Positions 1-47,773 of a stretch of 47,773 nucleotides of DNA are shown piece by piece. The translations under genes and the position numbers were made by a program. Position 1 is the stretch's first letter, and each line of letters begins with the position of its first letter. This DNA comes from a phage: NCBI GenBank assembly GCA_036604865.1, contig GCA_036604865.1_4856.1; one strand, 5' to 3'. The notes under the pieces were generated by a model, which was given only the letters and a program-made list of their open reading frames with translations, had not been told where the DNA came from and made no database searches.

Positions 1-72
1 CGTAGCTTAATTGGTTAAAGCAACCGACTCATAATCGGCTGATTGAAGGTTCAAATCCGTCCGTGTCCACCA
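1..72 (+). tRNA. 3-prime 72 nt (including CCA) of the tRNA(CAU) whose full copy lies at 47642-47718; truncated by the window start
   Basis: Bases 1-127 are identical to 47647-47773; T-loop ggttcaaatcc and acceptor 3-prime strand cgtgtcc followed by acca are visible. Confidence 0.6.
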
Positions 73-77
73 AATTA

Positions 78-107
78 AAAGCCGCTTTATGCGGCTTTAT
101 TTATTTC
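78..107. terminator. rho-independent terminator after tRNA (hairpin agccgc-tttat-gcggct followed by T-rich run); also closes minus gene 101-475
   Basis: GC stem 80-96 followed by ttatttatttc; A-rich on the 5-prime side so it can act in both directions. Confidence 0.5.
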
Positions 108-475
108 ACGACCCGCAAAAGCAACTCATGCACAGGTCTTTTCTCTTCCGTTAACATCGGCCTACCGAGCGGCGCTTGCAACTGGATGTAGTTAACGCAT
201 GAATCAATCGGATGCGTCTTAATGTATTCGATAATCTCATTGGCTTTCGCATCGACATCAGCAACGTTGTACTGCCCATGTTTGCCAACAACATACAGCG
301 AGAAGTAGAAGTCACCACCGAGTCCATTCATAACCTGCGTGCCGCCATTGGTTTGCAGGACAATAAATTGCTCATTGCCATCTCCGGTGTCATTCCATAA
401 CTGCAACTGCGAAGTCCACCCATCATACAATCCGGCATCCTGAAGATATGCATCAACCAGTTCAAGTATATTCAC
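101..475 (-). CDS. putative tail terminator / tail completion protein (assigned by position only)
   Basis: 124-aa ORF, last minus-strand gene before the major tail gene across the window junction; no motif recognised. Confidence 0.4.
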   Translation of the reverse strand: MNILELVDAYLQDAGLYDGWTSQLQLWNDTGDGNEQFIVLQTNGGTQVMNGLGGDFYFSLYVVGKHGQYNVADVDAKANEIIEYIKTHPIDSCVNYIQLQAPLGRPMLTEEKRPVHELLLRVVK

Positions 476-2574: not shown

Positions 2575-2748
2575 ATGGAAGGTGAAACAGAAGTTGTGGT
2601 TGTTGATGTTTTTTATCAAGCATCAGACGAAGGCATTCCAGCTCGCTGGTGCTGCGAGTTTATTCGCGATGGATGGACTGATTGTGAATATTTTGATAAC
2701 TCAGAAGATGCATATAACTATGCTTACTCACATGGATTTCAAGGATAA
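2575..2748 (+). CDS. small acidic Cys-containing protein
   Basis: ORF track 2557-2748; ATG at 2575 is best placed after SD agagg; first gene of the plus cassette. Confidence 0.45.
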   Translation: MEGETEVVVVDVFYQASDEGIPARWCCEFIRDGWTDCEYFDNSEDAYNYAYSHGFQG

Positions 2749-2751
2749 ACA

Positions 2752-3561
2752 ATGAAAACACTCAGCAAAATCTATTCAGACAAAGAAACGCGCAACGGCA
2801 TCGCTGTTAACAAAACCTATCTCGTGCCAGTGGAGCAAATATATCTGGAGCCGGGATACAACATCCGTGAAGCAGATGAGCAGCATGTGGAATATTTCGC
2901 GCAGTGCTGGGAATCAGGTCAGCCATTGCCAGCATTAACAGTTATTCCAGATGAGAAGGGAATCCGCATTCTTGATGGGCAGCATCGCTATCTCGGCGCA
3001 CTGCGTGCCATTGAGCGTGGCGCGCCAATCGCTCGCATTGAGTGTAAGGATTTCACTGGAGATGAGGCGGATAAAATTGCCTTCATGGTGTCATCCAGTC
3101 AGGGCAAGCAGCTTGACCCGTTTGAACGTGCAAAGGCTTACACGAGACTGAAAGGCTTTGGCTGGACGAATGAAGAAATCGCCAAGAAGGTGGGTCGTTC
3201 AGTATCTGACGTGCAGATGCATCTGTCACTGGGTGATGTGCCTGCGGAAGTAAAAGCGCGAATCAGTGCCGGGCAAATCAGCTATGCAAATGCCGTAGCA
3301 GTAACGCGTGAACATGGCGATGATGCGGTAAAAGTTATCGACGAGGCAGTCGAAGAGGCCAAAGCACAAGGCAAGGATAAGGTCACTGCAAAAGTGCTCA
3401 AGTCGAAAAAGATTAAGCCAGTAGACCGCCTGATTGAGTTATTGAAGCCAGCCGACCATGTAATTCTCCCCGCTGGTCATGTAGTGGCTGAGGACGAGGA
3501 ATTTATTCAGATTCCTGTTGCTGATATTCACGAGGTTATGGCAATTCTGGAGAAGATGTGA
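2752..3561 (+). CDS. ParB-like nuclease domain protein
   Basis: 269 aa; ILDGQHRYLGALRA matches the ParB N-terminal domain core (DGxHR); SD aagga upstream. Confidence 0.6.
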   Translation: MKTLSKIYSDKETRNGIAVNKTYLVPVEQIYLEPGYNIREADEQHVEYFAQCWESGQPLPALTVIPDEKGIRILDGQHRYLGALRAIERGAPIARIECKDFTGDEADKIAFMVSSSQGKQLDPFERAKAYTRLKGFGWTNEEIAKKVGRSVSDVQMHLSLGDVPAEVKARISAGQISYANAVAVTREHGDDAVKVIDEAVEEAKAQGKDKVTAKVLKSKKIKPVDRLIELLKPADHVILPAGHVVAEDEEFIQIPVADIHEVMAILEKM

Positions 3562-10516: not shown

Positions 10517-10676
10517 TTAGTACGTCCTCAGCAAGTTTGCGGAACATGATTTGCACTCTTGCCACCTTGCGCCACTCAGTCTCGGTGAGAATCACATCTT
10601 CCTGCTTCGGCATTCCCGACATTTCGCATGGCGGTAGCAGCTCATACTCTTGTTTCTTGCGTTTGGCTTTCCCCAT
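10500..10676 (-). CDS. hypothetical small basic protein (58 aa)
   Basis: Not in ORF track; MGKAKRKKQEYELLPPCEMSG...; SD aagggg; overlaps both neighbours, so uncertain. Confidence 0.25.
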   Translation of the reverse strand: MGKAKRKKQEYELLPPCEMSGMPKQEDVILTETEWRKVARVQIMFRKLAEDVLNEMGY

Positions 10677-11130
10677 GATGACCCCTTACATTGCGAAGCA
10701 GTGAATTGAACAGGTTGTTCACATTTACTTCATGCTCCTGCCATGAGTAACGCCACAGCTTCTTGTGGTGGTCATAGCTTCGCGTCACATCGCCGTTATG
10801 AAACATAATGCGAATGCGGCTTTTCACGATTCGGTAATCAATGCCAGTTGCGGCGCTGATTTCTTTCACTTCTGCGCCAGCACTATCAAGCAAATGGCAC
10901 TTAATCGCATCATCAATGCCTGCCGCATCATCAGAGACGAAATACTTATACTGCCATTTTCCACCGCGAATCACTGACTTCTCGCGGCGAATGAAGCCAA
11001 GTGCAAGCATCTCATGCAGACGATGCGTTGTAGTGCTTGAATGCTTTCCGCCGCAATTCTTCTCAATGTATGCGCGCGTTGCTCCTGGGTGATTCATAAT
11101 CACGCGCATTATTTGCGATTTATAGTCCAT
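10642..11130 (-). CDS. putative DNA-binding protein (winged-helix-like)
   Basis: 162 aa; two helix-turn-helix-like segments (IMRVIMNHPGATRAYI... and EISAATGIDYRIVKSRI...); inference from pattern. Confidence 0.4.
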   Translation of the reverse strand: MDYKSQIMRVIMNHPGATRAYIEKNCGGKHSSTTTHRLHEMLALGFIRREKSVIRGGKWQYKYFVSDDAAGIDDAIKCHLLDSAGAEVKEISAATGIDYRIVKSRIRIMFHNGDVTRSYDHHKKLWRYSWQEHEVNVNNLFNSLLRNVRGHHGESQTQETRV

Positions 11131-11377
11131 AATCGCGCTCCTCTGCTGCCTGATTGAAGTCGTCTGCGGTGTAGAGGTGTCCGTTGCGGGTATTCCATCT
11201 CTTTACGGCGTTTTCCCGTAAGCTCCAGTAGTCAGTTCCATTTCCACACATCGCACAGGCAACAAAAAATACACCTCCTTGTATATCGCTATAAGCCTCA
11301 TTTTCTCCGCAAAACGGACACTCCAGCAACCCTTCGTCGTTCATCATCGGCATATGTGGTGCGCTCATTTTACCCAC
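11120..11377 (-). CDS. Lar-like restriction alleviation protein (zinc ribbon)
   Basis: LECPFCG...CAMCG...AVKRWNTR matches the Lar family pattern CPFCG...C..CG...A..WN.R. Confidence 0.5.
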   Translation of the reverse strand: MGKMSAPHMPMMNDEGLLECPFCGENEAYSDIQGGVFFVACAMCGNGTDYWSLRENAVKRWNTRNGHLYTADDFNQAAEERDYGL

Positions 11378-11559
11378 TCCCCAAGATTGTTAAATTTAGG
11401 TGTATTGCCAGACCAGTCGATAACATCCTTCTGCTGACTGCGCTTGCGTTGCAGTCGGTTACGCACTTCTCGCAATTCGCACTCCAGCCATTCGCGAGTG
11501 CGTTCAACTTCATTTAGTCGCTGGATTAGCGATTCTTCGTACAGTTCGTCATGCGCCAT
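11365..11559 (-). CDS. hypothetical small protein
   Basis: 64-aa ORF, charged and helical-looking. Confidence 0.4.
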   Translation of the reverse strand: MAHDELYEESLIQRLNEVERTREWLECELREVRNRLQRKRSQQKDVIDWSGNTPKFNNLGEWVK

Positions 11560-33430: not shown

Positions 33431-33447
33431 TTAGTGAGGTGATGCAA

Positions 33448-34488
33448 ATGGGTATTCTTAATATTAAACCAGCAGAGCGTTCCGGTTCTCGCGTGGTCAT
33501 CGGTATCTCAGGTCAGTCTGGTAGCGGAAAAACATATAGCGCACTTAAGCTGGCGCGAGGCATGGTTGATTCACCAGAAGAAATCGGATTCCTTGACACT
33601 GAGAATGGTCGCGGTCGCCTGTACTCAAACATCCTTGATGGTAAATTCCTGCACGCTGACATGTATGCACCATTCAGCCCTGCACGTTACCGTCAGGCCA
33701 TTGAAGAATTTCAGGCTGCAGGAGTTAAGGTTCTCGTTATTGATTCAGGTTCACACGAATGGGAAGGGGAAGGCAGTTGCACGGAGATTGCTGAAAAGCC
33801 ACTGCTTAACGGAAAAAAGATGGCTGACTGGAAGCGCGCCAAAGCTGAACACAAGAAGTTCATGAACGCCATGCTGCAAAGCAATATGCATATCATTGTC
33901 TGTCTTCGCGCTCGCCAGAAAACTGACTTCGCAAACCCGAAGGAACCTGTATCACTTGGATTGCAGCCAGTGTGCGAGAAAGATTTCATGTTCGAGATGA
34001 CCGTGAGCATGATGATGCACGATGGAGGCAAAATTCAGGAGTTCACCAAACTACCAGAAGAACTACGCCCAATCTTCTTTGAGTCTGGTCGTGAAAGTGT
34101 TCGTCATGGATACATTGGCGAGGCTCACGGTCGCGGACTCATCAAATGGGTGGACTCTGGCGTTAAAGTTGACGAAGAGTTTGAATCATGGCGATCACGA
34201 CTTCAGCTTTCAGCCGCAAAAGGCATGGAAGGCTTGAAGGAAGAAGCAAAATCAATACCTGACAACCTGAAAGATAAGATTCGCGCAATCTGGCCTTCTC
34301 TGGCCGCTTCTGCTGCAGAATACGATCGCATTGAGTCTTTCATCAATGATGAGCAATTATCTCCTGTGGTAATAACTCCGCAGGATAAATTCAACCCTGC
34401 AAAACTGGCTAAACCACAACATCATCAGCCAGAACAGCAGGAAGAAACAAAAACCGAACATAAACCAACTCCAATTGAAGGATTTTAA
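33448..34488 (+). CDS. RecA-like recombination ATPase (Sak4-like)
   Basis: Walker A GISGQSGSGKT, Walker B LVIDS; ATG at 33448 after SD tgagg (ORF track 33439). Confidence 0.55.
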   Translation: MGILNIKPAERSGSRVVIGISGQSGSGKTYSALKLARGMVDSPEEIGFLDTENGRGRLYSNILDGKFLHADMYAPFSPARYRQAIEEFQAAGVKVLVIDSGSHEWEGEGSCTEIAEKPLLNGKKMADWKRAKAEHKKFMNAMLQSNMHIIVCLRARQKTDFANPKEPVSLGLQPVCEKDFMFEMTVSMMMHDGGKIQEFTKLPEELRPIFFESGRESVRHGYIGEAHGRGLIKWVDSGVKVDEEFESWRSRLQLSAAKGMEGLKEEAKSIPDNLKDKIRAIWPSLAASAAEYDRIESFINDEQLSPVVITPQDKFNPAKLAKPQHHQPEQQEETKTEHKPTPIEGF

Positions 34489-34491
34489 TAA

Positions 34492-34986
34492 ATGGCACGC
34501 GGCGTAAATAAAGTAATTATTGTCGGCACTCTCGGTAACGACCCTGAAGTTAAATATTCTGCATCAGGATCTGCAATTGCTAATCTTTCTGTTGCAACAT
34601 CTGAGCAGTGGAAAGATAAACAAACAGGAGAAAAGAAAGAACAGACTGAATGGCATCGCGTAGTCATCTTCGGGAAACTTGCAGAAGTTGCAGGAGAATA
34701 CCTTCGAAAAGGTTCGCAGGTTTACATCGAAGGACAACTTCGCACTCGTAAATGGTCTGACAGCAACGGCATTGACCGATATACAACGGAGATTGTCATT
34801 CCGCAGATGGATGGCGTAATGCAGATGCTTGGCGGTAAGCGTGATGATTCTGGTCAGCAACAACACCAGCAATCAGGACAACAACCGCAACGACAGCAAC
34901 GACAGCAACAGCAGCCACCAAAACAACAAATCCCACAAGGAGGCAATGAGCCTCCGATGGACTTCGACGATTCAATACCATTCTGA
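34492..34986 (+). CDS. ssb: single-stranded DNA-binding protein
   Basis: OB-fold N-terminus [16 protein letters not shown]...[14 protein letters not shown], Gln-rich linker, acidic tail DFDDSIPF. Confidence 0.9.
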
Positions 34987-35236
34987 TGATAAAACTAACC
35001 CCGCCGAAGCGGGGTTGTGTCACTTACTTACCCGCAATTCCCACCAGTAAAGTTTCGAGGGATTCAATCGTTACTCCAGTCTGACTAGAAGCAGCTCACC
35101 TGATTCATTCATAATATTACCGTAGTTGTAAAGTTAGGAACCCAAATAGGGTCGTATCATAAGATGACTCTTAGATAATACTTAGCATGATGGAGTACAC
35201 CCAGACATAGTGTCTGGTATTACCTGCGAGGTAACT

Positions 35237-35812
35237 ATGTCTATCAAAGATATTTTCCAGAGTGGTAAGGATGTTGTATGTAAAATGAAGGGTGGTTTGC
35301 TGGTCGTGGGGAGTTATGGGGAACGAATAGTTTCTGCTAATAGCATCTCAGAGATTCCTCCAGAACTTCTACCTTTCCCGCCAACAGAGTTAGAAGATAC
35401 TTTCCTCCTGGATTTGTATGCATGGACGGGGAACCAAGCAGTAAATGATCAGTCTTGGTTCAATTACTTTTCATTACCAGGGATATCTAAATCACCTGGG
35501 GGTACAGCAGCTTTAACTATTGAGGAGGGTAATCTTAAGTTCCCTGTTAGAACCAGGAACACCCAAGTGATGTTCAGTGTTCGTATCTCAGGAACTATTG
35601 CAGGAGGTGCTGGTACAGCAAGAGAATGGAGAACACAAGCAAGACGAACCAATGGAACTACGGTAGTGGGTTCAGGCGCTAGTGTTAAAGTACAGGGTAC
35701 GGACATTGCTAACAGAGATAACGTATTAGCTACTTACACACTTGGTTCAACGGACCATTTCATGGTAGATGGTATTCAGTTAGGTATGTTTATAATATCT
35801 CTGGGTAAGTAA
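35237..35812 (+). CDS. hypothetical protein
   Basis: ORF track 35210-35812; likely start MSIKDIFQ at 35237; convergent with the tailspike gene; no motif recognised. Confidence 0.45.
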   Translation: MSIKDIFQSGKDVVCKMKGGLLVVGSYGERIVSANSISEIPPELLPFPPTELEDTFLLDLYAWTGNQAVNDQSWFNYFSLPGISKSPGGTAALTIEEGNLKFPVRTRNTQVMFSVRISGTIAGGAGTAREWRTQARRTNGTTVVGSGASVKVQGTDIANRDNVLATYTLGSTDHFMVDGIQLGMFIISLGK

Positions 35813-35865: not shown

Positions 35866-35900
35866 GAAAAGGCCCCGTGAGGGGCCTTAGTTATTTTTAT
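35866..35900. terminator. bidirectional rho-independent terminator (aggcccc-gtga-ggggcct, T-runs on both sides)
   Basis: Hairpin 35870-35887 between convergent genes ending at 35812 and 35903. Confidence 0.55.
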
Positions 35901-35902
35901 TT

Positions 35903-38275
35903 CTACCCCCTATCCGCCCACCAACCAGTACTCGTTCTGTAAAGCATAATAGCCGCCGCCGAAAGCGTCTTATTAACGCGGATGCGTCTTTCAATAGGTA
36001 TTGATGTACTCTCCTGCAAGGTAATCGGCTGAGAAGACGTAGTGCTGACTAATAATACTTTATCCGCATTACCCGTTATCTCATTCAGGGTCATGCTAGC
36101 GCTTAGATAATAAATACCTGCGTTGTTTGAGTTTATGAATGTTGTTGGAGTTGAAACGGTTAGTGTCACTGCCGAGGTTGAGAGCTGCACTGCCGAGCCG
36201 AAAATGTTGGCTTTGAGCGTACGAGAATCTGAATTCCAGAACAGACTCAATTGAGGGATGTCATAAGAAGCACATAAAGCATTTTCCTGTGAACCAATAA
36301 CCGACGGTAACTTCCCCCAACTTTTTGCATAGTTACTAACGCCAGAAAATGCCCCGATAGCCCGGTGTTTAACCCTCAAGAAATTGAAAGTGTTTTGGCC
36401 TTCTGTGATAGACATAAAACCACCAGAACCAACTGGGGTTATTGTGCTGTACCCCGTATAGAGTCCTGGGTCATCAAACATAGTTCCTGTGAACTCAGTC
36501 CAGGAAACCCCGTTATTAGTTGAAACCCATGTCCTTAAATCATTTCTGAATCGATAGTCGTGGTTGTCACCTGTCGGCGCAGTTACGAGCAACACATCAC
36601 GGGAGTCACCATTAGACATTGATGAATATAAGCACATGCCCGCTTTACAATTCGTGGTGTCAATAGATGACTGATAAATCCAATTTACGGAGTCAAAACT
36701 TCGATAGACACGCTGCCGCCCTTTTGTGACGCTGGTGTCGTCGTTATAATAATCACGGATTAGCGCCAGAAGAGATCCATCCCCAAGCTGGGTTATCTGT
36801 AGTTCACCAGCCCCGTTAGACCCTTCTGTCCCACCAGCCAGGATGAGTTGACGATTGTATTTGAAAGTCCCATCGGCGTTTTCAGAAACACGGATATAGC
36901 CGTGATAGAAAACGCCACCATTGAGAATCCAGGCATAAGGGACAAGAAGGTCTCCGTCTCCGGTTACGCAGAGAGGAGATGGAGAGAACCAGGCAGAAGT
37001 AGCATTTTCGGGCTTAACTGAGGTGGTAATATTTACCGGGTTAGTCCATTGGGTGCCGTAGTTATCGCTATAGGTCATCCAGTTCTGGAAAGTAGTGTTA
37101 GGGTCGAAACCAGTAGAGCCATGTCCTACCCCTACCCTGCCGCGCGCGGTGGTATAGAAACACCAGATGCGTCCCCTTTTGTGGTCAAAAGCAAAGCATG
37201 GTTCTGCTGCTTGCTGCTCCCCTTCTGTTGAAATAACAATTGGCGGGTCAAAAGATAGATTGTTGTTTGAGTTTCTAATCTCTATTCTTGACGTTTGGTT
37301 CGCATCTTGACCGGGGTCAAAAGATGTACCAACCAGCACTGTGTACATAAGAAAAACGCGGTTGTTAAATGAGGTGTGAACCATCGACGGCTCTCGATAG
37401 AACTCACCAGTATTTGCGGTGATAGTAGTGTAATTATCTGAATACAAGATGCCACCAGTATTTTTATTAATATATACTGGAAGATTTTTTTGGACTGAGT
37501 CCTGCCCGACGGGTAGAATTTTTACCGTGCCTGACCCGGTGATAGTGACTTCACCATCTGTGGTGTATGTCGGGGCGAGATTTGACTCAATTTTATAAGT
37601 ACCAGTGGGGATTAGAGCCCCGCCAGCCTGGATAAATGCTGCGGTAGAATCGGCAACGCCTGTCCTGTCAGCCCCAAAATCGATCACATTAAACGGTGAG
37701 GTAGCCTTTATCGCTGACATGGCAGAAGGTGAGTCGATCAATATCCGCCACTGCGTACCGCCACCAGTAGTTACCGTATCCCCTGCCTTAAGGGTTACCG
37801 TCTGACCGCTAGATGTAGTCCCGGTAAAAATGTCACCTACGGTATTGAATGTTAATCCAGAAAGAGAACCCAGCTGTCCACGTAATGCTGCATCACCAAC
37901 ACCAATCCACGCACCAACACCAATACCACCAGATGTTTCTGGAGTTGATCCGGCAGGAACAGTTTTAGGAAACTCACCGTCCCAGCGGTAATACTCTCCA
38001 TTGGTTTCATCCTGCAAAACATGATTTGGAAGAGTTAATTCATTGTTAGGAAGTGGCGCGCCAAGCTGAAAGCTCTTTAAAGTGATATATCCATAGTTGC
38101 GGATAGCTTCTTCTGCTGTGTACTGAAATCCAGCAATTGTCCAGCGGCGAACTCCGAACCTGTCGGTGTAGTAATGCGCGTCAGATGTCACTACCTCGTC
38201 GATTTTCCCTGCATTAAATTTAAGGTCGCGCGGGTCTTCTGATGGGATTGGTTTATTGGTTGGTGTGGTAGCCAT
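35903..38275 (-). CDS. tailspike / tail fibre protein with Asp-box (BNR) repeats, probable glycan hydrolase
   Basis: 790 aa, last gene of the tail operon; degenerate Asp boxes YSDNYGTQW and STNNGVSWT; SD aggag before ATG. Confidence 0.6.
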   Translation of the reverse strand: MATTPTNKPIPSEDPRDLKFNAGKIDEVVTSDAHYYTDRFGVRRWTIAGFQYTAEEAIRNYGYITLKSFQLGAPLPNNELTLPNHVLQDETNGEYYRWDGEFPKTVPAGSTPETSGGIGVGAWIGVGDAALRGQLGSLSGLTFNTVGDIFTGTTSSGQTVTLKAGDTVTTGGGTQWRILIDSPSAMSAIKATSPFNVIDFGADRTGVADSTAAFIQAGGALIPTGTYKIESNLAPTYTTDGEVTITGSGTVKILPVGQDSVQKNLPVYINKNTGGILYSDNYTTITANTGEFYREPSMVHTSFNNRVFLMYTVLVGTSFDPGQDANQTSRIEIRNSNNNLSFDPPIVISTEGEQQAAEPCFAFDHKRGRIWCFYTTARGRVGVGHGSTGFDPNTTFQNWMTYSDNYGTQWTNPVNITTSVKPENATSAWFSPSPLCVTGDGDLLVPYAWILNGGVFYHGYIRVSENADGTFKYNRQLILAGGTEGSNGAGELQITQLGDGSLLALIRDYYNDDTSVTKGRQRVYRSFDSVNWIYQSSIDTTNCKAGMCLYSSMSNGDSRDVLLVTAPTGDNHDYRFRNDLRTWVSTNNGVSWTEFTGTMFDDPGLYTGYSTITPVGSGGFMSITEGQNTFNFLRVKHRAIGAFSGVSNYAKSWGKLPSVIGSQENALCASYDIPQLSLFWNSDSRTLKANIFGSAVQLSTSAVTLTVSTPTTFINSNNAGIYYLSASMTLNEITGNADKVLLVSTTSSQPITLQESTSIPIERRIRVNKTLSAAAIMLYRTSTGWWADRG

Positions 38276-47641: not shown

Positions 47642-47718
47642 GGACGCGTAGCTTAATTGGTTAAAGCAACCGACTCATAATCGGCTGATTGAAGGTTCAA
47701 ATCCGTCCGTGTCCACCA
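47642..47718 (+). tRNA. tRNA with anticodon CAU (Met, or Ile if lysidine-modified), CCA encoded
   Basis: Cloverleaf: 7-bp acceptor stem with one G-U, D arm gctt/aagc, anticodon loop cuCAUaa, T loop ttcaaat, one A-G mismatch in T stem, discriminator A plus CCA. Confidence 0.75.
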
Positions 47719-47773
47719 AATTAAAAGCCGCTTTATGCGGCTTTATTTATTTCACGACCCGCAAAAGCAACTC
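47647..47773. repeat. 127-bp direct repeat of window positions 1-127 (genome closure overlap or terminal redundancy)
   Basis: Exact identity read from the sequence: cgtagcttaattggttaaagc...cgcaaaagcaactc at both ends. Confidence 0.9.
47724..47753. terminator. rho-independent terminator after the tRNA (same element as 78-107)
   Basis: Identical sequence to 78-107 within the terminal repeat. Confidence 0.5.

Follow-up and report, generated by a model that had tools for sequence, protein, structure and literature searches.

The stretch of DNA analysed here (the window, a phage contig of 47,773 nucleotides) carries at positions 34492..34986 on the plus strand an ssb gene, which encodes a bacterial-type single-stranded DNA-binding protein of 164 residues, followed by a stop codon. 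The reading frame was taken from the list of open reading frames, and its product was identified by profile, structure and name. The Pfam profile PF00436 (SSB) matches the product with an E-value of 2e-38 (131 bits compared to a cut-off of 26), and the match spans residues 5-106, corresponding to profile positions 1-101 of 104. PHROG 44 (“single strand DNA binding protein”) matches with an E-value of 1.5e-56. SSB chains from the PDB align with the phage protein as well (7f2n, E 1.2e-63; the E. coli chains 1eqq/4mz9, E 4.4e-58), and the NCBI name for the identical protein MEF4813184.1 is “single-stranded DNA-binding protein [Escherichia coli]”.

The protein is organized in three parts, all encoded on the plus strand. 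The OB-fold DNA-binding domain comprises residues 1-113 (34492..34830), ends with ...GVMQML, and was delimited by the Pfam match, the structure alignment, its constant length in related alleles and an AF2 model. It is followed by a low-complexity linker of 42 residues (114-155; 34831..34956), recognized by its composition, the lack of predicted secondary structure and its richness in indels among relatives. The last nine residues, MDFDDSIPF (156-164; 34957..34983), represent the acidic C-terminal tip; they align with the C-terminus of 7f2n and are free of gaps in 24 alleles. The features of the SSB family found in the window protein are the OB domain, the conserved W/H/F/W residues, a variable and poorly conserved linker, and a tip of the form (D/E)-x-I-P-F. 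The conserved residues lie in the motifs SEQW, EWHRV, IFGK and RKW, which align with enterobacterial SSB, the numbering in the window protein being one lower. In E. coli SSB the corresponding positions are W40, W54, H55, F60 and W88, which we take to be the aromatic residues stacking on ssDNA and the His of the tetramer interface. The phage SSB is presumably a homotetramer.

The linker contains 17 Gln, 6 Gly, 6 Pro and 8 charged residues out of 42, and no aromatic residue; direct reading found no PxxP motif in it. [quoted passage not shown] A single-sequence AF2 model recovers the strands of the OB domain and a helix at residues 62-72, and contains no secondary structure after residue 102; the block-mean pLDDT is 44-61 over residues 101-164, compared to a mean of 59.5 for the model. 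As the model was built without an alignment and is poor overall, it adds little weight to a disordered state, but together with composition and homology it suggests that the linker is disordered. At the border between OB domain and linker, residue 108 (34813..34815) is Asp in the window protein only, compared to Gly in 23 out of 23 close relatives (PQ[MIV]GG...).

The three parts are shared with E. coli SSB (1EQQ, 4MZ9, 1EYG) and other enterobacterial SSBs (7F2N, 7F25). The OB domains align end to end (E 4e-58 to 1e-63), the Trp/His/Phe/Trp motifs are common to both, and both linkers are low-complexity stretches in which Gln, Gly and Pro abound. The tip differs by a single residue (MDFDDSIPF compared to MDFDDDIPF) and is preceded by NEPP in both. 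The linkers themselves differ more clearly. That of the window is shorter (42 compared to 56 residues in E. coli), contains 40% Gln (17 residues) compared to approximately 20% (11 Q), and only 14% Gly compared to approximately 30% (17 G).PMC12143593 Charged residues make up approximately 19% of the window linker, whereas the E. coli linker has two Arg (R116, R155), and the aromatic residues W136 and F148 of E. coli have no counterpart in it.PMC12143593 A further difference is that the window ssb is encoded by a phage and lies inside a recombination module.

Directly upstream, at 33439..34488 on the plus strand, lies the gene of an AAA_24 / Sak4-like ATPase of 349 residues, identified by Pfam, PHROG and the annotation “recombinase” in relatives; its stop codon precedes the ssb start codon by 3 nt. 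The protein is matched by PF13479 (AAA_24) with an E-value of 3.9e-12. PHROG 124 (“Sak4-like ssDNA annealing protein”) matches weakly (E 2.4e-9), covering residues 1-163 and thus the N-terminal half only, and the best PHROG, 1366 (E 2.3e-83), is one of function not known. In relatives, the annotated genes follow one another as exonuclease - recombinase - SSB. A comparable arrangement was reported for phage HK620, where ssb adjoins sak4, and where the last six residues of the SSB are needed for Sak4 loading and stimulation and for annealing (PMC5928155). As may be the case in the window, the HK620 ssb gene is located directly downstream of a gene for a core-only RecA-like/AAA_24 protein, and both SSBs end with an acidic C-terminal tail terminating in PF (PMC5928155). 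They differ in the tip (NDYPPF in HK620, DDSIPF in the window) and in the size of the neighbor: Sak4 of HK620 has 25.6 kDa, while the window protein is longer, with its 349 residues matching Sak4/AAA_24 in the N-terminal half alone. By this analogy the upstream Sak4-like protein is a likely, or at least plausible, functional partner of the SSB.

The recombinase gene upstream of ssb comes in two size classes among related phages, a short one of approximately 660-669 nt (ASO78B, Akira, S192, seszw, Segz_1) and a long one of approximately 1038-1041 nt (6947, Bas80, Bas81, KFSST1, AB4P2, ST1UNAM). The C-terminal tail of the window recombinase is itself of low complexity (...KPQHHQPEQQEETKTEHKP...), with a period-11 repeat reported by TRF at 34446..34466. 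The closest relatives over the whole genome are phages 6947, HC6 and HC8A, with 91.4-91.6% identity over 71% of a 24-kb query; judged from such matches, the window phage seems close to no phage record in the searched GenBank collection. In these three phages an additional gene for a hypothetical protein of 166 residues is inserted between recombinase and ssb, and the SSB has a different N-terminus (MSSIGINKCIIL...); both differences are seen on comparing 10521..11512 of 6947 (L112) with 34488..34492 of the window. The recombination module is therefore mosaic.

Downstream of ssb, a G+C-rich, terminator-like hairpin (AACCCCGC CGAA GCGGGGTT, 34997..35016) starts 11 nt past the stop codon. The terminator scan scores it on the minus strand, and the T tract on the plus strand is weak; for the homologous position in ASO78B the annotation gives a terminator in both orientations. 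The slot between ssb and the tail gene is variable. In the window it holds an ORF at 35210..35812 (+) of 200 residues (PHROG 17779, E 7e-99; no Pfam match), followed by a bidirectional hairpin at 35869..35888. In ASO78B, Akira and Bas80/81 ssb is directly followed by a tail fibre gene, and S192 has an endonuclease VII gene in the slot. The tail spike of the window (35903..38275, minus strand, 790 residues) begins with a domain of the TSP1/Gp66 N-terminal type (PF18668, E 1.3e-18); a BNR/sialidase-like profile (PF13859, E 1.9e-4) matches it below the threshold. At the equivalent position downstream of ssb an endo-N-acetylneuraminidase is annotated in ST1UNAM, and this annotation is also given to a gene of ZCEC08. 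These matches hint at a receptor-binding protein that degrades capsule.

The window starts and ends with the same 127 nt (1..127 and 47647..47773). A tRNA-Met is found at 47642..47718, and Rfam reports a copy of the tRNA cut at its 5' end at 1..69. At NCBI the window corresponds to an entire contig of 47,773 bp that is filed under Escherichia coli. It has the appearance of a phage genome of 47,646 bp, complete and closed into a circle, within a bacterial assembly, and the length of the terminal overlap suggests a short-read de Bruijn assembler with k=127.

The linker had been described in an earlier note on this DNA as Gln-rich and of low complexity, and as encoded by near-tandem codon repeats prone to slippage. 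Direct reading, TRF and codon usage confirm the Gln-rich core: the 26 residues quoted there are found exactly, at 34852..34929 (+), and the interval 34835-34945 given for them brackets the peptide with approximately 16 nt to spare on either side. The repeat itself had to be corrected. The 12-mer caacgacagcaa (CAACGACAGCAA) indeed occurs twice, at 34888 and 34897, but the second copy begins 3 nt before the first one ends, which makes the period 9 and not 12. The perfect tandem is GCAACGACAGCAACGACAGCAAC, 23 nt at 34887..34909 (+), composed of CAACGACAG twice (at 34888 and 34897) and then CAAC; it encodes an additional QRQ. Around it, at 34855..34915, TRF recognizes an imperfect array of period 9 that has 6.4 copies, 72% matches and a score of 53, barely above the default threshold of 50.

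To judge the repeat against the composition of the tract we counted perfect two-copy tandems of at least 23 nt in randomized sequences. They occur in 0.27% of the codon shuffles if the whole linker is shuffled, in 3.0% if the shuffling is restricted to the Gln-rich core, and in 1.8% of the permutations that exchange synonymous codons and leave the protein unchanged. The exact repeat thus modestly exceeds the expectation from Gln richness (P 0.003-0.03), while the looser near-tandem appearance is largely due to Gln having only two codons. Among the Gln codons of the 42-residue linker there are 11 CAA and 6 CAG; this CAA share of 65% compares to 33% outside the linker (Fisher P 0.009). Nowhere in the linker does a codon follow itself more than once. 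Scans with Rfam and for tRNAs found nothing within or close to the tract.

The CAA/CAG tract also produces open reading frames in other frames. Two of them, at 34796..35023 (−) and 34829..35050 (+, +2 frame), were rejected as genes and regarded as low-complexity shadows of the tract: their translations, 73-75 residues long, show runs of Val/Ala on the minus strand and a stretch rich in Asn and Ser in the +2 frame. In KFSST1, D10 and PHA46_2, small “hypothetical proteins” are annotated across the 3' end of ssb; they are probably spurious and caused by the same kind of tract.

Relatives of the gene are abundant. A megablast search of the GenBank phages with ssb gave 110 matches at 80-95% identity, from Salmonella/Escherichia siphoviruses belonging to the group of Vi II-E1, Skatevirus, Akiravirus, Deseoctovirus and Segzyvirus, and in IMG/VR at least 575 stretches encode a relative. 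The SSBs of this phage group (e.g. ASO78B, KFS-SE2, Akira, Skate, Bas77-81) are orthologous to the window SSB, with 88-93% identity in protein and 88-90% in DNA. They share with the window the gene order exonuclease - recombinase - ssb - hairpin - tail spike, and their linkers are similarly rich in Gln (Q fraction 0.32-0.44). In a broader sample of 77 distinct phage SSBs the Q fraction of the linker ranges from 0.03 to 0.54 and its length from 29 to 61 residues; the window clade is located at the Gln-rich end of this sample without being its extreme.

For a closer comparison 24 alleles with all distinct gene sequences were used: the window, 11 contigs of IMG/VR that are closely related to it, and 12 phages from GenBank. 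The length variation between isolates expected in the earlier note is found, with linkers of 38-46 residues in place of identical ones, and proteins of 160-168 residues; the 164 residues of the window SSB are unique among the 24. The tip has 9 residues in every allele. The OB domain has 113 residues in 22 of the 24 alleles and 114 in the other two, both of which have a different N-terminus. Apart from these two, indels are confined to the linker, where 10 out of 46 alignment columns contain gaps compared to 1 out of 114 in the OB domain. All indel sizes are multiples of three, so that the tip is kept in frame throughout. The mean pairwise identity is 0.957 in the OB domain, 0.799 in the linker and 0.867 in the tip, where the variants DDS and DDD occur.

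The differences within the linker are of several kinds. One codon (CAA/CAG) is gained or lost in the first Gln run, and another one-codon change is found in the last Gln run; both one-codon indel sites resolved at the DNA level lie inside CAA/CAG runs. A Pro codon before R/H is present in some alleles and absent in others. The largest length difference is a block of 18-21 nt encoding GGWGTNP, which has no repeat context and may have arisen by allele exchange or been lost in an old deletion. It separates linkers of 44-46 residues with a GGWGTNP-like block (6 out of 24: L002, L004, L005, L012, L114, L115) from those of 38-42 residues. The block holds the only Trp of the linker and resembles the GGWGQPQQ of enterobacterial SSB; its counterpart in E. 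coli SSB is the region of W136. The remaining 18 alleles, the window included, have R or QRQ at the site of the block (window 34885..34900) and no aromatic residue.

One difference is found in the window alone. Among the 24 alleles only the window SSB reads QRQQRQ, while 23 out of 23 relatives contain a single CAACGACAR (CAACGACA(A/G)) or a diverged single copy. The additional 9 nt repeat the 9 nt next to them exactly and form a gap-free insertion in the alignment. Two further searches agree with this. A scan of IMG/VR for the exact 21-mer CAACGACAGCAACGACAGCAA gave 31 stretches, none of them from the phage group of the window, and among the best 40 of the 110 GenBank matches no fully aligned match has a subject span of 495 nt, the length of the window gene. 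The duplication is private to the window genome as far as these 23 aligned relatives, the 21-mer scan and the best 40 of the 110 matches reach, and parsimony would place its origin in the lineage of the window. Besides the duplicated CAACGACAG, the window differs from its phage group by H in place of PR and by the change G108D.

Out of the 31 stretches with the 21-mer, 26 did not match any SSB and were set aside as Gln tracts without relation to it. In the linker of an unrelated SSB type (L082, L083, L086, L092, L101) the identical 21-mer is present, apparently by convergence. The L082-type protein (ORF 2606..3109) is 58% identical to the window SSB, and its linker has 50 residues and 54% Q. 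The 21-mer shared with this type shows that SSB linkers rich in Q/R and built with CAR/CGA repeats have more than one origin. Its ORF runs 9 residues past DDDIPF, whereas the window SSB ends at the tip. Such extensions are seen more widely: the SSB ORFs of L021, L027, L073, L082, L083, L086, L092 and L101 continue for 9-15 residues past ...D(D/S)DIPF (e.g. DDDIPFAPLHHLAGG, DDDIPFAPIGLMHPTHAIFSI), so that in these viral contigs the tip would not lie at the C-terminus.

An event of the slippage type is the most likely cause of the duplication, and the exact 9-nt copy as well as the one-codon indels within CAA/CAG runs fit such a mechanism. The expectation that the tract is prone to slippage is supported to this extent. 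With approximately 2.5 repeat copies and no codon run longer than two, its instability can be at most mild, and with its Gln codons interrupted it is not a highly unstable microsatellite. The most serious alternative is that homologous recombination among ssb alleles that have diverged, i.e. mosaicism, and not slippage, accounts for most of the length differences between the alleles. We regard this as possible, although somewhat doubtful. It would account for the GGWGTNP block and the resulting split between long and short linkers, and the variants of the tip (DDS/DDD) and of the linker (IPQGG/SPQGG) are indeed combined differently among the alleles; phage 6947, the closest relative over the whole genome, likewise points to a mosaic locus with its other SSB N-terminus and extra upstream gene. 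An imported allele, however, hardly explains an exact copy of the neighboring 9 nt that no sampled allele carries, nor the position of both DNA-resolved one-codon indels within CAA/CAG runs. Recombination and slippage are not mutually exclusive. We regard it as very unlikely that the tandem is a mere by-product of a Gln-rich peptide written with CAA and CAG, lacking any history of duplication, in spite of a TRF score just over the threshold at 72% matches, of the 3% of core shuffles in which a perfect tandem reaches at least this length, and of the identical 21-mer in 31 unrelated stretches, the linker of another SSB type among them. The permutations with a fixed protein reproduce the DNA repeat in 1.8% of the trials, and decisive is the comparison of the alleles, in which each of the 23 relatives has a single copy, while the addition in the window is free of gaps and identical to its neighbor.

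Two further readings are still less probable. That the duplication is an artefact of assembly or sequencing in a region of low complexity we consider very unlikely. The allele is a singleton from one contig: the exact protein was found on no other contig, and it is the sole member of its 90% cluster among approximately 15 billion proteins. On the other hand the insertion is in frame and copies its neighbor exactly, and the 23-nt repeat is far shorter than the read or k-mer length suggested by the 127-nt terminal overlap, so that an assembler would have no reason to resolve it wrongly; if that overlap does reflect a short-read de Bruijn assembly, this argues against an artefact. The other private changes in ssb (H for PR at residues 125-126; G108D) also mark a truly distinct allele. 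Equally improbable is a contingency locus, i.e. a hypermutable switch of SSB properties, or diversifying selection by host defences that sense SSB, even though no part of ssb varies more than the linker, and Retron-Eco8 and similar defences are activated by phage SSBs (PMC13402713). A long uninterrupted array is missing, with approximately 2.5 perfect 9-nt copies and interrupted Gln codons, and the 24 alleles contain no copy changes that shift the frame; on/off switching is thus absent, every indel being in frame. In PMC13402713 the phage SSB is described as binding the msdDNA, and recognition of ssDNA by T7 SSB is ascribed to the OB fold; these passages give no role to the linker. High variability is in any case the default for a disordered linker under relaxed constraint (PMC7145534).

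The reading we hold to be very probable is therefore that of a bacterial-type phage SSB with a disordered linker as tether, in which small indels from slippage, the QRQ duplication included, are tolerated, and whose tip docks partner proteins. The OB domain (residues 1-113) would bind ssDNA, and the Gln/Pro/Gly-rich linker of 42 residues would act as a flexible tether under weak constraint of both sequence and length. The tip MDFDDSIPF may dock SSB-interacting proteins, i.e. replication and repair factors of the host, and, by analogy with HK620, also the Sak4-like annealase encoded directly upstream. The tip is one residue off its enterobacterial counterpart; most simply read, the phage SSB would plug into the network of host SSB partners. 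The linker codons, mostly CAA and CAG, would create short direct repeats, which may lead by slipped-strand mispairing to small in-frame indels, and their tolerance to the length polymorphism among related phages. In the window genome one such slippage event would have duplicated CAACGACAG and added QRQ, probably as a nearly neutral change.

This is in agreement with what is reported for bacterial SSBs, and tethering and partner binding are proposed here by analogy with these. Their linkers are poorly conserved, range from approximately 16-25 to approximately 125 residues, are rich in Gly and Pro and have few charges, and partners bind the acidic tip, which in E. coli SSB has 9 residues, whatever the length of the linker (PMC7145534). 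Cooperativity, condensate formation and exposure of the tip do depend on linker length and composition (PMC7145534, PMC12143593), and the region of W136 in E. coli SSB influences condensation (PMC12143593). As in E. coli the linker's length and its composition decide on co-condensation of variants and tip exposure (PMC12143593), its form in these phages, either long with the GGWG block or shorter, Q/R-rich and devoid of Trp as in the window with its added QRQ, could be functional instead of neutral, and could tune the mixing with host SSB condensates, the hand-off of ssDNA to the Sak4-like annealase, or the sensing by defences. We consider this very improbable.

The linker feature is a known and ordinary property of SSB linkers and has little import beyond annotation. 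For annotation it follows that the tract should be described as a disordered SSB linker, and that no genes should be called from the ORFs that overlap it in other frames. With its private 9-nt duplication the window offers a clean in-frame tandem duplication of textbook size in a low-complexity coding tract, and linker length represents a handy small marker to separate related phages of the group. Mildly interesting is the occurrence of linkers with and without Trp in SSBs that are 88-93% identical, which could serve as natural variants for ideas on condensation and tip exposure.
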